Shown here piece after piece: positions 20,111 to 38,304 of a stretch of DNA of 64,000 bases. The position numbers were made by a program, and so were the translations under genes. The stretch is from an uncultured Gammaproteobacteria bacterium (GTDB lineage Bacteria; Patescibacteriota; Microgenomatia; UBA1406; GWC2-37-13), in the NCBI GenBank assembly GCA_964392185.1, contig CAYMOO010000001.1, forward strand, positions 24,060 through 88,059, given 5' to 3'. Every line of letters starts with the position of its first letter. Position 1 is the first letter of the stretch. The notes beneath the pieces are model-generated. The model saw only the letters and a program-made list of their open reading frames with translations, was not told the DNA's origin and searched no databases.

Positions 20111-20184
20111 CGGGACGTAGTTCAGATGGCTAGAATGCACGCTTTGGGAGCGTGAGGTCGGCGGTTCAAGTCCGCCCGTCCCGA
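20111..20184 (+). tRNA. tRNA-Pro (anticodon TGG)
   Basis: Sequence CGGGACGTAGTTCAGATGGCTAGAATGCACGCTTTGGGAGCGTGAGGTCGGCGGTTCAAGTCCGCCCGTCCCGA. Acceptor stem is CGGGACG/CGTCCCG, anticodon stem CACGC/GCGTG with loop TTTGGGA, and T loop TTCAAGT. No CCA is encoded. Confidence 0.9.
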
Positions 20185-20335
20185 CAAATTTTTTCTCTGT
20201 TGTTAATTCTCCAAAATTCTTTCTCGCGGTTGTATTAATTCCCAACATCTATTTATTTAATTTTTTACAAGATTATTTCGGGGATTTTATCTAGTCGAAT
20301 ATACAATATATACTAAGTAGGATCGATCGGATATA

Positions 20336-20404
20336 AACAAACAATTGGAGAGAAGAAACAGGCGGGATCTCGGGCGTCTTGAGGAAGCTCCTCAATTGTT
20401 TGTT
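20336..20404. repeat. 12-bp perfect inverted repeat (AACAAACAATTG / CAATTGTTTGTT) enclosing a 45-nt loop, just 3' of the GC-rich ORF
   Basis: Nt 20336-20347 are the exact reverse complement of 20393-20404. On the minus strand the structure starts 8 nt after the stop codon at 20413. No U-tract follows, so it is not a canonical terminator. Confidence 0.6.
20342..20360. repeat. Left copy of an imperfect ~19-21-bp inverted repeat bracketing the GC-rich cassette
   Basis: CAATTGGAGAGAAGAAACA at 20342-20360 matches the reverse complement of 21715-21735 (CAATTGGAGAGAGAAACAATT), with 18 matching positions and one 1-nt indel. Confidence 0.5.
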
Positions 20405-20412
20405 AACTCATA

Positions 20413-21570
20413 TTATTGAGTTAAACTTTGTGGCTGCAACACATGCATGGCCGGGAAAAGGTGCCCCCCACGAAGGAGAACACCACCCTCGCTGGTCACT
20501 GCATATGTCTCAATGTGGAAACTTCCGGCTAAACTCCAGTGCATTTCCGTCCGAACTAAGATCATACTGTTTGGAGGAATGAGCACATTCTTACAGCTCA
20601 AAACAGCACCACTGACGGTACAAAAATTTTGCGCTGTAGCATTTGTGCCGGCAGGCAGATTCGCGGTGACATCTACTTTAACCTCGGTGTCTGCCATATT
20701 AATCAGCTTCACAGTATGATAACTGTTGAACTGACTTACCGTAGTGTTAACATCGGGAGCATAGACTAACCACGATAACGATTCGGGATCCGACGGATCT
20801 GCTGCAGCTTCAACACCATTGGTTACTGTCACTCTTCGAATCATCCAACCTGGCCTTGTGGAATGAATACCCTCGAGGACAAGGATTTTCACTTCATACG
20901 TGCCTGTTTGATTCCAAGTTACTGGAATAAGCAGATTTCTGACTTGGTTTGCGCCCACCTCAACGCCAAAACACACGATTCTGTCGGGGTGATCATAATC
21001 GGGGTGACATCCGCTCGGCAACGCGCCAATTTGAAGTGAACCAAGAGGAAATTCGAAGATCACCTGAAACGATTGAGTTTTATTACCCGCGTTTACAATT
21101 TTGATCGGAAACGCCGCACTTAATACTGAGGTTTTTTGGTCTTCCGTGTATGAAACGAATGGGAAGCGTACTACTTCGGGTTCTTCTGCCCCGGCCCCAT
21201 CGAGGAATTCATCGGAATATGCAGGATCTTGGTATACAATCCTGATGGTTTGCAAGTAATCCGAATGAATTACGAGCCTAAACTCCTCAGTGCCGCAGAA
21301 AACCTGCAGCTCGGTTGTTTGATCCGAAAAACTGCAGTGTGAACTTTCCGTACGCAGCTCATCGACCACGATTCCCCATTCGCTCTGAATAAACACCTTC
21401 TTTGCTCGAAGCGTAAGATGTGTTTGCCCAGCGGCAAGCGGGATCGACACGATCCGCGCCATCAGCGGAAGATAAACATTGGAACTTGAGTCGGTTGTGT
21501 CCTGTGCCTGCGCTGATGAAGCGATAAGACACATGATTGTAACTAAAACTACCAAAATTCTTGTTTTCAT
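20413..21570 (-). CDS. Secreted hypothetical protein in a compositionally atypical (more GC-rich) segment
   Basis: 385-aa ORF with a signal peptide MKTRILVVLVTIMCLIASSAQA, followed by NVYLPLMAR. No family is recognised. By eye it is more G+C-rich than the flanking genes, and long AT-rich non-coding flanks lie on both sides. Confidence 0.55.
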   Translation of the reverse strand: MKTRILVVLVTIMCLIASSAQAQDTTDSSSNVYLPLMARIVSIPLAAGQTHLTLRAKKVFIQSEWGIVVDELRTESSHCSFSDQTTELQVFCGTEEFRLVIHSDYLQTIRIVYQDPAYSDEFLDGAGAEEPEVVRFPFVSYTEDQKTSVLSAAFPIKIVNAGNKTQSFQVIFEFPLGSLQIGALPSGCHPDYDHPDRIVCFGVEVGANQVRNLLIPVTWNQTGTYEVKILVLEGIHSTRPGWMIRRVTVTNGVEAAADPSDPESLSWLVYAPDVNTTVSQFNSYHTVKLINMADTEVKVDVTANLPAGTNATAQNFCTVSGAVLSCKNVLIPPNSMILVRTEMHWSLAGSFHIETYAVTSEGGVLLRGGHLFPAMHVLQPQSLTQ

Positions 21571-21714
21571 AGTCTCCTTGTATTGTTGGAAAAGGGAATA
21601 TACGGTGTGACTGCAACTTGCCTCTTCCCCGCAAGTAAGCGCGCGTCACAGGACGAACACAAATACGCACTCATCACTCTTTAACTCATATTCGACCTGT
21701 GACGCCGCTTAAAA

Positions 21715-21735
21715 AATTGTTTCTCTCTCCAATTG
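21715..21735. repeat. Right copy of the imperfect inverted repeat bracketing the GC-rich cassette
   Basis: AATTGTTTCTCTCTCCAATTG. Its reverse complement matches 20342-20360 (see the left copy). Confidence 0.5.
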
Positions 21736-22012
21736 TAAAAGTACATTCTCATTTAATCGCTTATTCACGAGCTAATCGAAAACAGCGATTTATGAGGTAT
21801 TAGTAATTTATTATACTCTAATAAAAATATTTTTGCACATTTAATATGTATAAAATATAGGTAAAAACTCTTTAGAATTACGGCTTTTTCCGTGAATAAG
21901 TCATCGACCGATGTAAAGATTTAAAACCAATTTTTTACTTGGTTTTTCATTTATTGATATTTATACAGGTCAAATGACGGCGCCTCTACTAATATGTATA
22001 ATATTGCAAGAT

Positions 22013-22900
22013 ATGAAAGCAAACCCCATGCGTCTTTTAACAACAACCGGATGGACCGATTACCAACTGCTGGATTCTGGCGAAGGAAGCAGATTGGAAA
22101 AATTTGGTAAATTCAAAATAATGAGACCGGATCCGCAAGCTATCTGGAAAAGAAGATTGGGTCCGTCGGTATGGGCTAATTGCGACGCTTCGTATATAAG
22201 TGGGGGAAAATCTGGTAAATGGATCTATAAAAAGGGAATGCCGCAGGAATGGCCGATAAAATATGAAGATATCTCCCTCTTTTGTCGCCTTACCCCATTC
22301 AAGCACACAGGTATTTTTCCGGAACAACAATCACACTGGGATTGGATAAAAAAAACCATCTCCAAATGCGGATTCCAACCCAACATCCTCAACCTTTTTG
22401 GCTACACCGGAGCTGCTACTTTGGTTGCTGCCTCGGCAGGAGCTAAGGTCACTCACGTCGACGCGTCTTACCAAGCAATCGGGTGGGCACGTAAAAATCA
22501 GGAGAATTCCTCGTTGAAGGACAAACCAATCAGATGGATTCTTGATGATGTGGTCAAATTTATAAAAAGAGAGTTAAAACGGGGAACAAAATACGACGGA
22601 ATATTAATGGATCCTCCCACATATGGCCACGGCCCAAACGGCGAAGTCTGGAACTTCGATCGTATGTTTCCGGAACTAACTGATATTTGCGTCAAGTTAC
22701 TAACAAGTAAACCTCTCTTCGTTATCGTCAATGCTTATGCCGATGCCGCATCAAACATAATGCTGCAAAATGTGATGGCAGACTATATGACGAATCTCGC
22801 AGGAACAATCGAATCCGGTGAGCTCATAATCCAGGAATCCGGCAACGGCAGACTGTTTTCAACCGGTATATATGCGAGGTGGTCCGGGACAGCTCAATAA
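22013..22900 (+). CDS. Class I SAM-dependent methyltransferase (RlmI/RlmK-like)
   Basis: It has WTDYQLLDSGEGSRLEKFG at the N-terminus, the SAM motif LNLFGYTGAATLVAASAGAKVTHVDAS, and the catalytic ILMDPPTYGHG. The ORF begins at 21974, and I prefer the internal ATG at 22013 (MKANPM), though the start is uncertain. Confidence 0.7.
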   Translation: MKANPMRLLTTTGWTDYQLLDSGEGSRLEKFGKFKIMRPDPQAIWKRRLGPSVWANCDASYISGGKSGKWIYKKGMPQEWPIKYEDISLFCRLTPFKHTGIFPEQQSHWDWIKKTISKCGFQPNILNLFGYTGAATLVAASAGAKVTHVDASYQAIGWARKNQENSSLKDKPIRWILDDVVKFIKRELKRGTKYDGILMDPPTYGHGPNGEVWNFDRMFPELTDICVKLLTSKPLFVIVNAYADAASNIMLQNVMADYMTNLAGTIESGELIIQESGNGRLFSTGIYARWSGTAQ

Positions 22901-23256: not shown

Positions 23257-23736
23257 TTATAAACCAATGGGTTGAGTTTCGTATTTAATATATCTGCCGA
23301 CAAGCGGGTCGATTACTTCCGCTTTATGCATATAAACATCCGCTGCCTTATCATCCCCTTGTTCACGATACAATTTACTCAAATAAAACAACACGTCACG
23401 ATGTTCGGGATACTTTACCGCGACCAATTCAAGTTTACGTATCTGTTCTCCACGAAAACGCACATCAGAATAGACATAGTTGCCCAGATCGCCACCACTA
23501 ATATTATTGAGTCGATTGAAAAAATTATCATAATTCCTAGTTGAACGCATGCCTTGCAAAAAAAATATAGCTGCGTCTCGATCGCCTCTCATAAGAGGTA
23601 TATAAACATCTGGTACGTATTGGGAAGCGGCTATATTACCTATTAAGATTAAGAATATAATTATGGTTAATATCCTTGGAAACCAGCGATGAATTTTCTC
23701 GGAATAATACCCACTCATACCGATAGTATACTGCAT
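23257..23736 (-). CDS. Hypothetical membrane-anchored protein with TPR-like C-terminal helices
   Basis: It has a TM helix (ILTIIIFLILIGNIAA) and a TPR-like stretch LFYLSKLYREQGDDKAADVYMHKAEVIDP. I prefer the ATG at 23736 (MQYTIG), which avoids overlap with the divergent Hpt gene. Confidence 0.4.
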   Translation of the reverse strand: MQYTIGMSGYYSEKIHRWFPRILTIIIFLILIGNIAASQYVPDVYIPLMRGDRDAAIFFLQGMRSTRNYDNFFNRLNNISGGDLGNYVYSDVRFRGEQIRKLELVAVKYPEHRDVLFYLSKLYREQGDDKAADVYMHKAEVIDPLVGRYIKYETQPIGL

Positions 23737-23759
23737 GCGGAGTATGGTATCATGATTGC

Positions 23760-24146
23760 ATGATGGTTGATCTAAAAGAGTATAAATCACTCTACATAAA
23801 AACCGCGCGCGAATACGTCCAAAAAATAAAAAAAAACTTTTCCTTATTGAAAGAAAATCCGTCTGATCTTACCGCTATTGGAGAGGTCTACATAGCTGCA
23901 CACTCGCTTAAAAGCCAAAGTCAGATAATGAATTTTACTGAAATTGCCAATCTCTGTTCGCAAATTGAATCCAGTTTCAAACAAATAAAAGAGTCTAAAA
24001 ATCCGATAAAAGCCGATATAGCAACAATTTTTGACGAAGTAAGCGCGTTATTAGATGATGAAATGTCAGCTATAGAAAATGGGCGTCCGGAATTATCAAG
24101 TGCAGCTCTATGTGAGCGATTTGGATCTATATTAAAGTCTTTATAA
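23760..24146 (+). CDS. Hpt (histidine phosphotransfer) domain protein
   Basis: 128-aa helical ORF with AAHSLKSQSQ matching the HPt phospho-His motif HxLK(G/S). It lies directly upstream of a receiver-domain gene. Confidence 0.6.
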   Translation: MMVDLKEYKSLYIKTAREYVQKIKKNFSLLKENPSDLTAIGEVYIAAHSLKSQSQIMNFTEIANLCSQIESSFKQIKESKNPIKADIATIFDEVSALLDDEMSAIENGRPELSSAALCERFGSILKSL

Positions 24147-37443: not shown

Positions 37444-38304
37444 TTATAGCTGACCGAGCTTTTCTTTTCTCTCGGTTTCTTCACGGACAAGATTGAGAAA
37501 TCTTTCGGTAGATGACAAACGGCGGTGTCCGACTATTCGGGCTATATATTCAAGGGATGCTCCACGCATCAGTTGATGGGCAATAAAAGTGTTTCTAAGG
37601 TCGTTGACGGTTGCATTGGTGATTTCCACCTCGCGGAAACAACGGTCGATAATTTGTCTAATATTTCTTATCAACAACTGCTTTCCGTTTCGCGTAATAA
37701 AAACGTAGGTCTCTTCCGATTGTGGTCGGATAGCTAAATATTCGTCTAGTGCAGTTTTCGCCGCTTTATTAAGAGGTACGTCACGTTCAATGTTCTTACC
37801 ATAAGGACGGATATGTAAATGATCTTCTTTTACGTCTTCCAGGTGTAATTCTGCCAGCTCTCCAATTTTTATACCAGTCTGGAGAAGTAACTCCACCAGA
37901 GCGTATGTGCGGACATCTTCCTTGGCTAAATCACGTAGTGCGCGATATTCAAGAGTGCTTAAAATTCTCGGTGACGATGGCGTAGATTTAGGATGGGAAA
38001 TATCCAGTGTAGGATTGTATTCAATCACGCTTTGCACTTTTAGGGTACGGAAAAATGTACGAATAGAGTTGAGCTTTCGGGAAGCTGATTTCTTTGTATA
38101 GTTCTCTTTTATCAGTTTTTCGATAAAAGCTTCTACGTCTTCTTTCTTTATCTCGCGCACATCGCTTTTTTCAAGCGTAGTAAAAAAACCTATAAACTGT
38201 TCCAGATCTTTTTTATATGCTATAACGGTATGATGCGACTTGTTTTGGCTCTTGAGTTGGCTTATAAACCCCTCAAGAAGCGACGGTAATGAGTACTGAT
38301 CCAT
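37444..38304 (-). CDS. XerC/XerD-like tyrosine-recombinase homologue with substituted catalytic residues (Tyr->Phe)
   Basis: 286-aa ORF with an N-terminal SAM-like core-binding domain (HTVIAYKKDLEQF). The catalytic domain aligns with E. coli XerD. TGIKIGEL has Lys for Arg-I. NDLRNTF has Asn for both His residues of the HxLRH box, with Arg-II kept. IVGHRRLSSTERF keeps His but has Phe at the Tyr nucleophile position (codon TTT). Confidence 0.8.
   Translation of the reverse strand: MDQYSLPSLLEGFISQLKSQNKSHHTVIAYKKDLEQFIGFFTTLEKSDVREIKKEDVEAFIEKLIKENYTKKSASRKLNSIRTFFRTLKVQSVIEYNPTLDISHPKSTPSSPRILSTLEYRALRDLAKEDVRTYALVELLLQTGIKIGELAELHLEDVKEDHLHIRPYGKNIERDVPLNKAAKTALDEYLAIRPQSEETYVFITRNGKQLLIRNIRQIIDRCFREVEITNATVNDLRNTFIAHQLMRGASLEYIARIVGHRRLSSTERFLNLVREETERKEKLGQL

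Follow-up and report, generated by a model that had tools for sequence, protein, structure and literature searches.

Conserved inverted repeats around a secreted-protein gene of a Microgenomates genome suggest pairing between the two ends of its mRNA

A 64-kb stretch of DNA (the window) from a 1.46-Mb genome of 91% completeness (G000) carries, next to a tRNA-Pro gene, a single open reading frame (ORF; 20413-21570, minus strand) for a secreted protein of 385 aa, and short inverted repeats bracket this ORF together with its leader. We find that these repeats most likely serve to control this one gene, probably through pairing of the two ends of the mRNA, rather than being the scar of a horizontally acquired or mobile island. 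To our knowledge, post-transcriptional control through bacterial 3' untranslated regions (UTRs) has been documented for a handful of genes, none of them in uncultivated members of the Candidate Phyla Radiation (CPR, Patescibacteria), a group in which we know of essentially nothing about gene regulation. If the reading is true, conserved 5'/3'-UTR complementarity tied to a terminator would add a new form to a mechanism that is rare in bacteria, and would be the first case in CPR. The locus is a small and clean test case, with one gene, one 13-20-nt motif in three copies, and invariance amid very fast protein evolution.

The two repeat copies form an exact 13-nt inverted pair (20341-20353 and 21724-21736) that, with one indel, extends to 19-20 nt (20341-20360 and 21718-21736). 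The original prediction for this DNA had described inverted repeats of about 19-21 bp around the ORF and its leader, and this description was confirmed. The upstream copy, motif A (ACAAUUGGAGAGAGAAACA; 21718-21736, minus strand), was recognised by repeat search and three-locus comparison and lies 166 nt ahead of the ATG; the downstream copy (20341-20360, minus strand), which consists of A' and an extension, reads UGUUUCUUCUCUCCAAUUGU in the mRNA. Within one genome such a repeat is hardly beyond chance, because 6 of the 1038 naive ORFs of the genome have an exact 13-nt inverted match between the 250 nt ahead of the ORF and the 150 nt behind it. Its significance comes from exact conservation at two homologous loci. 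HMMER searches of 1.84 billion representative proteins yielded two true homologues only, both in genus-level relatives: P0003 in a genome of the same genus (G003) and P0002 on a 3.9-kb metagenome contig (L037). Word-based homologue searches returned the query itself and P0002 only, a related-locus search of genome contigs returned none, and each of the three proteins is on record on one contig only. The 13-mer ACAATTGGAGAGA is exact in each of the three loci, where it precedes the start codon by 166, 164 and 150 nt, and its reverse complement TCTCTCCAATTGT lies within about 90 nt past the stop codon. The repeat runs for 18-20 nt per genome, with the consensus ACAATTGGAGAGAnGnAAnA. The three secreted proteins are only 29-42% identical pairwise, compared with 67-69% in all three pairs for the adjacent S-adenosylmethionine (SAM)-dependent methyltransferase (Pfam PF10672; 21974-22900, plus strand), which serves as the syntenic anchor. 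The conservation of the repeats across these loci argues that they are real and functional.

The motif pair is also specific to this gene. The genome has two exact copies of the 13-mer, and blastn found no second copy of any part of the 1.8-kb stretch around the ORF. Among the 223 genomes of the order, a forward and a reverse motif occur as a pair only in G000 and G003. Singleton motifs numbered 12, versus 7 in a reversed-pattern control; 11 of the 12 fall inside open frames that are 159 aa or longer, and all 12 lack a partner copy. A 16-mer scan of genome contigs gave at least 119 matches, all of them chance matches and none with a hairpin, and a hairpin-pattern scan of 596 Gb of genomes plus Joint Genome Institute metagenome contigs gave 58 matches, of which only the one in G003 was real.

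Repeat search, folding and alignment placed the downstream copy in a hairpin immediately past the stop codon (20337-20403, minus strand). It is composed of a 5' arm, A'' (ACAAACAAUUGAGGAG; 20388-20403), a loop with a conserved box (CUUCCUCA; 20380-20387) and a 3' arm, A' (CUCUCCAAUUGUUUGU; 20337-20352), all on the minus strand. The underlying palindrome (20336-20352 and 20388-20404, 17 nt at 88%) sits immediately 3' of the stop codon and bears out the earlier observation of a further inverted repeat overlapping the left copy. The predicted fold has -19 kcal/mol (z=-2.7), and those of the homologues have z=-4.3 and -4.8. The 13-mer of the downstream copy is identical in L037 and G003, and A'', the 5' arm that faces A' in the hairpin, reads ACAAACAATTGG[A/G]G. 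When the three 3' regions are aligned, ACAAACAATTG, the loop box CTTCCTCA and CTCTCCAATTGTTTGT are invariant. The 3' arm A' reads …UCUCUCCAAUUGUUUGU, motif A reads ACAAUUGGAGAGA…, and A'' reads ACAAACAAUUGGRG. At the variable positions of A'', A and G replace each other opposite a U of A', which turns an A-U pair into a G·U pair. Such changes preserve RNA pairing, not DNA identity, and therefore favour a function at the RNA level.

The leader, of about 150-166 nt, would start with motif A; next come a very stable hairpin (P1), the GGGGAAG box and, last, the ribosome-binding site. P1 (21636-21712, minus strand; about 29 bp, with core arms at 21643-21657 and 21691-21705) was predicted by folding at -38.4 kcal/mol (z=-6.3) and lies 12-20 nt downstream of motif A. 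The homologues have a hairpin at the same position with unrelated sequences (z=-8.0 and -8.6). In 3 of 3 loci folding is stronger for the sense than for the antisense strand (-38.4 versus -29.3, -48.9 versus -24.8 and -27.6 versus -25.8 kcal/mol), with 4, 9 and 2 G·U pairs in the sense folds. Because the position of P1 is kept with unrelated sequence, the sense strand folds better and G·U pairs are present, the leader appears to be selected as RNA. Rfam at E≤1 matched the tRNA and, below threshold, HPnc0260 (36 bits versus a threshold of 59, treated as noise), and assigned the leader to no family. The purine box GGGGAAG (21624-21630, minus strand) is found past P1 in all three leaders and is, in our reading, complementary with one G·U pair to the box CUUCCUC that the 3' hairpin carries in its loop. 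A Shine-Dalgarno sequence, AAGGAG (21574-21579, minus strand), can be read 3 nt ahead of the ATG. On the other side of motif A, outside the repeat, the alignment revealed a conserved promoter-proximal stretch (…GATTAAATGAGAATGTACTTTT; 21737-21768, minus strand) that is a putative promoter or transcription start site (TSS) region. Conserved sequence extends about 20-30 nt beyond the upstream repeat, reads GCAGA…GCAC.TT[TC] across the loci and includes a -10-like [GC]AT[AT]AA box 17-20 nt upstream of the motif.

We propose that the 3' arm A' would pair either with its local partner A'' or, over 15-20 nt, with the far-5' motif A; leader and 3' UTR are complementary over 15-20 nt in 3 of 3 loci. 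The local, terminator-like A'':A' pairing and the end-to-end A:A' pairing would be mutually exclusive and of similar strength. At the three loci the duplex energies are -27.2, -23.9 and -25.7 kcal/mol for A:A' and -18.1, -22.4 and -23.5 kcal/mol for A'':A', which are in the range of a switch. When the mRNA ends close on each other, they may be shielded from 5'- and 3'-dependent RNases, as in hbs of Bacillus subtilis; alternatively, the A:A' duplex could be a double-stranded substrate of RNase III, which is encoded in the genome, or a translational block, as in icaR of Staphylococcus aureus. The different fates of the two hairpins would follow from this arrangement. A' must fit two alternative partners, so that any change in it would demand two compensations and its sequence would be frozen, whereas P1 has one partner and may drift. 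That the sequence of the 3' hairpin is frozen and that of P1 is not therefore implies an extra partner for A'. We infer from the sequences that motif A would be transcribed and that an A:A' duplex would form and affect expression. A switch or stabiliser based on 5'/3'-UTR pairing, of the icaR or hbs kind, is thus a working interpretation that we hold with a confidence somewhat short of even. We also consider it possible, leaning to doubt, that the locus is a three-way switch, in which the mRNA 5' end and the 5' arm of the terminator hairpin would compete for the invariant 3' arm (terminated or open versus end-closed) and which stayed frozen while a CPR surface protein diverged to about 30% identity, or else the first conserved whole-gene inverton of CPR, served by a non-adjacent recombinase.

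The two known systems resemble the proposed one in different ways. In icaR, pairing between the 5' and 3' UTRs prevents translation and gives rise to an RNase III site (Ruiz de los Mozos et al. 2013; PMC3868564), and the A:A' duplex would likewise be a potential RNase III substrate. The 5' partner in icaR lies on the ribosome-binding site, whereas the one described here precedes the real ribosome-binding site by about 150 nt; the complementarity spans 15-20 nt compared with 7 in icaR; and the 3' partner is also an arm of a terminator-like hairpin, which would set up a three-way competition. For hbs, a 14-nt pairing between the 5' and 3' UTRs is summarised as protecting the mRNA from RNase Y (Braun et al. 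2017, as summarised in PMC7821165). The mRNA ends would be paired in both cases, and the long structured leader would fit a stable and highly expressed message. The organism, the gene and the sequences differ from those summarised for hbs, and according to the same summary close relatives do not share a conserved hbs 3' UTR, in contrast to the motif here, which is invariant while the protein is about 30% identical.

Several observations weigh against pairing of the mRNA ends. A promoter scan of L037 found GTGATA-18-TACAAT with the -10 element (TACAAT) inside motif A, a match at chance level (2 found, 2.3 expected); if it is real, most of motif A would be untranscribed and the TSS could lie inside the motif. 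The 13-mer displays no covariation because it is invariant, and in the extension of 5-7 nt the copies within a genome match at only 6 of 12 variable positions. Three positions of the extension are invariant in 6 of 6 repeat copies, which would also fit recognition of the DNA by a protein. The 3' hairpin did not show a consistent strand asymmetry when sense and antisense folds were compared at the three loci. The complementarity between GGGGAAG and the loop box (B:B') was not significant in a crude duplex test, in which the entire leader, run in RNAduplex against the entire 3' UTR with A and A' masked, did no better than shuffles; B:B' is therefore unsupported. All of these comparisons are based on the three known loci.

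The three invariant extension positions are what would be expected if a protein recognised the repeats, and one such possibility is a whole-gene inverton, in which a site-specific recombinase would flip the 1.37-kb segment between the 18-20-bp repeats and uncouple the gene and its leader from a promoter outside the upstream repeat. A conserved promoter-like stretch does adjoin the upstream repeat on its outside, the product is a surface or secreted protein and thus a usual target of phase variation, and the genome encodes two tyrosine recombinases (no serine recombinase was found in it). However, no recombinase adjoins any of the three loci. The nearest tyrosine recombinase (37444-38304, minus strand; 286 aa) is 16 kb from the locus, next to an RNase H gene, and we judge it by size and context to be a housekeeping Xer protein; the other copy is on contig C150. 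The orientation relative to the conserved outside stretch is the same in 3 of 3 assemblies, and relative to the methyltransferase it is the same in two. Described invertons (fimS, Bacteroides Mpi-type promoters, Hin/Gin segments) are similar in that short inverted repeats bracket a segment for a surface protein, but most are below 300 nt and carry a promoter and no whole gene (PMC11602134), whereas the segment here is far larger, comprises a whole gene and leader, has no invertase nearby and represents the single repeat-bearing locus of each genome. An inverton would also leave unexplained the imperfect third copy A'', its pairing-preserving A/G changes and the RNA-type leader hairpin, and we regard it as unlikely. 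The repeats might instead be bound as DNA by a dedicated regulator or sigma factor. The motif would then overlap the promoter ([T/C]ACAAT as -10), and its copies in both orientations behind the gene would act through looping, a roadblock or an antisense promoter. The position of the -10 element of the L037 promoter match within the motif, the 13 invariant nucleotides together with the further invariant positions, and the palindromic CAATTG core of the motif would agree with this, but the L037 match is at chance level and, in our reading, no -35 element is conserved at a constant spacing in the three loci, nor does one precede the antisense copy. Moreover, the neighbouring response regulators are REC-only proteins without a DNA-binding domain, and the A/G changes in A'' point to RNA, which makes DNA sites of this kind improbable.

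Gene order bears on the remaining proposals, which assume that the gene came from elsewhere. In the window the methyltransferase gene is followed by 403 nt, the secreted-protein gene and tRNA-Pro(TGG) (20111-20185, plus strand; found by ARAGORN and by Rfam as tRNA at 64 bits), which converges on the secreted-protein gene and is outside the conserved unit. In L037 the order is methyltransferase (minus strand), a gene for a REC-only response regulator (plus strand), 246 nt and the homologue (plus strand), with no adjoining tRNA. In G003 the methyltransferase, the response regulator and tRNA-Pro are neighbours and the homologue is at a different locus, between genes for a SulP transporter and an aldo-keto reductase. 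Local alignment identified, at 21769-21851 (minus strand) of the window, a remnant that consists of the 3' end of the response-regulator gene and an L037-type spacer (score 51 versus 27.9±4.0 for shuffles, maximum 47). The last 12 or so codons and the stop are left and the first 115 or so are gone; the remnant codons read …LYILNVQKYFY before the stop, compared with …RYILDEQKKHLA before the stop in L037, and AGTATAATAA then follows in both. As a candidate for a whole decayed response-regulator gene the 403-nt flank was rejected, since tblastn gave no significant protein match and only about 12 codons and the spacer are recognisable in the DNA. Because the window keeps a remnant of the regulator that precedes the homologue in L037, the gene is ancestral at this locus and not inserted. 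The long AT-rich flank is accordingly the 166-nt leader, the promoter region and a gene remnant. In G003 (L024, G003:C1, 10287-10722) the response-regulator frame ends in the antisense of the tRNA-Pro 3' end (…EEIL, then GRDGRT and the stop), and this tRNA-adjacent site looks like a deletion scar from which the cassette and the regulator's own last codons were removed. In the simplest history, the ancestral order was methyltransferase, regulator, gene and tRNA-Pro, the regulator was lost here, and the gene was lost from the G003 site. That G003 has its copy at a different locus means at least one relocation or duplication of the unit. The homology of this copy begins about 30 nt before motif A and stops just past the 3' hairpin; an empty site for this copy was not found, as the SulP and aldo-keto reductase genes have no orthologues in the studied genome or in 40 relatives.

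It had been proposed that the gene is a horizontally acquired islet next to tRNA-Pro. Three observations are in line with this: the gene adjoins the tRNA, the interval between methyltransferase and tRNA-Pro in G003 lacks the gene, and by tetranucleotide distance the ORF ranks among the top 4% of genome windows. By dinucleotide distance it ranks in the top 10%. The ORF had been seen as visibly richer in G+C than every neighbouring gene, which the computed values did not support. Compared with the 932 genome ORFs that reach 200 aa or more, its GC content is 0.471 versus a mean of 0.423 (standard deviation 0.040; z=1.2, 87th percentile), its GC content at third codon positions (GC3) is at the 69th percentile, and 8.5% of genome windows of 1158 nt are equally or more GC-rich. 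Nearby secreted-protein genes have the same GC content (0.462 for a Cys-rich protein and 0.474 for a 1012-aa pilin-like protein), and the methyltransferase gene has 0.446. The computed composition falls within the range of the genome itself, which essentially refutes horizontal acquisition by the measure that the original prediction had set. In addition, the homologues are confined to the same CPR lineage, the response-regulator remnant marks the gene as ancestral here, and the G003 regulator that reads into the tRNA antisense indicates a deletion. As in tRNA-linked genomic islands, the gene adjoins the 3' end of a tRNA, and some relatives have it at this site and others do not; unlike in such islands, there is no integrase in 20186-21973 or adjoining it, no att-type or tRNA-derived direct repeat, no foreign composition, and the synteny remnants show an ancestral position. 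A direct repeat of AAATTTTTTCTCT (20186-20198, just past the tRNA) and AAATTGTTTCTCT (21714-21726, at the upstream inverted repeat) is AT-rich and matches at 12 of 13 positions; chance alone would yield about one such match per 2 kb. An islet integrated at tRNA-Pro is therefore largely refuted, and we consider it very improbable.

A remnant of a non-autonomous mobile element had also been suggested; it would be similar to a miniature inverted-repeat transposable element (MITE) with a passenger gene, and the two repeat copies would be its terminal inverted repeats. The repeats do resemble terminal inverted repeats, and the G003 copy is at a different locus with homology that runs from about 30 nt before motif A to the end of the 3' hairpin. 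However, each genome has one motif pair and no further copies, and there is neither a transposase nor a target-site duplication in the flanks. Because conservation continues outside the upstream repeat, and in view of the lack of target-site duplication, transposase and integrase, the repeats do not mark the ends of a mobile element. It would also be unexpected for an inactive remnant to keep its ends exactly while the passenger gene fell to about 30% identity. We rate such a remnant as having hardly any likelihood. The earlier statement that the cassette contains no recombinase or transposase gene was correct, with none in 20186-21973. Two other element types were tried and rejected. The hairpin ends …GTTAACAAAC / GTTTGTTTAT misfit the RYYYAAC … GTTRRRY cores of an integron gene cassette (attC), and there is no cassette array or adjacent integrase; for a target gene of a diversity-generating retroelement (DGR) there is no template repeat, as 20186-21973, searched by blastn (word size 9) in the whole genome, matched only itself. 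An inverted-repeat-bracketed cassette beside a tRNA need not be mobile or foreign, and the long AT-rich flank of this one is a structured leader and the decayed remnant of a neighbouring gene.

The gene is an ordinary chromosomal gene that is lineage-restricted and fast-evolving. Judged from sequence, the genome is a member of the Microgenomates group of CPR: its named relatives are Levyibacteriota, Gottesmanbacteria and Roizmanbacteria, its PilB is 88% identical to that of G003, and the genes flanking the homologue on L037 are 67-83% identical to those of the studied genome. Several Third Party Annotation records of metagenome-assembled genomes (L232-L248) are titled 'uncultured Gammaproteobacteria bacterium' and have a PilB 62-88% identical to that of this CPR genome; these records sit among those of Levyibacteriota, Gottesmanbacteria and Roizmanbacteria, and their titles look wrong. 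A large rearrangement appears to separate the lineages of L037 and the studied genome. The gene downstream of the homologue on L037 (3194-3886) is 83% identical to G000:C1:22246-22935, which is 21 kb from the cassette and in another relative orientation.

The coordinates given earlier for tRNA-Pro, the ORF and its non-coding flanks proved correct; the flanks measure 227 and 403 nt, with GC contents of 0.33 and 0.34. The methyltransferase probably starts later than 21974 (within 21974-22030), and its orthologues begin about 12-17 codons downstream, near MKANPMRLLTTTGW. The open-reading-frame list, the alignment and AlphaFold describe the 385-aa product as a signal peptide followed by three β-sandwich domains. 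It is probably a secreted or cell-surface protein and has a predicted Sec-type N-terminus, MKTRILVVLVTIMCLIASSAQA before QD, with the signal peptide ending in …SSAQA. It matches no family in Pfam (E≤0.1) or NCBIfam (E≤1), in agreement with the original prediction of a secreted protein without a recognisable family. The AlphaFold model, which was built on a three-sequence alignment, is all-β with a mean predicted local distance difference test (pLDDT) score of 62 and about 75-83 in domain 2. Foldseek gave generic tandem immunoglobulin (Ig)-like matches only (RbmA, transglutaminase C-terminal domains/barrels and macroglobulin (MG) domains) and no functional lead. The protein alignment shows a conserved Cys pair in each of the three domains, and we read a DUF11-like LP.G…C…C pattern in domains 2 and 3. 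Membership of a Pfam surface repeat family of the DUF11/CARDB type was rejected, as the profile gave no match at E≤0.1 and the likeness consists of the pattern and a generic Ig-like fold. It is a speculation, based on secretion, three Ig-like domains, fast evolution and a long stabilising leader, that the protein is a major surface component of these cells.

The mature N-terminus NVYLPLMAR had been likened to a motif of Chloroflexi proteins, a resemblance that did not hold up: it is only partly kept in the homologues (VVYMPLIQY in L037 and MSYLSLVTT in G003), these are in CPR relatives, and there is no link to Chloroflexi. As a lineage sorting signal, the YLPLM-type motif was not enriched among N-termini in the genome (11 matches versus 8.7 expected). 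A 177-aa ORF of the window (23257-23790, minus strand) encodes a transmembrane helix and then DVYIPLMRG, which is similar to NVYLPLMAR.

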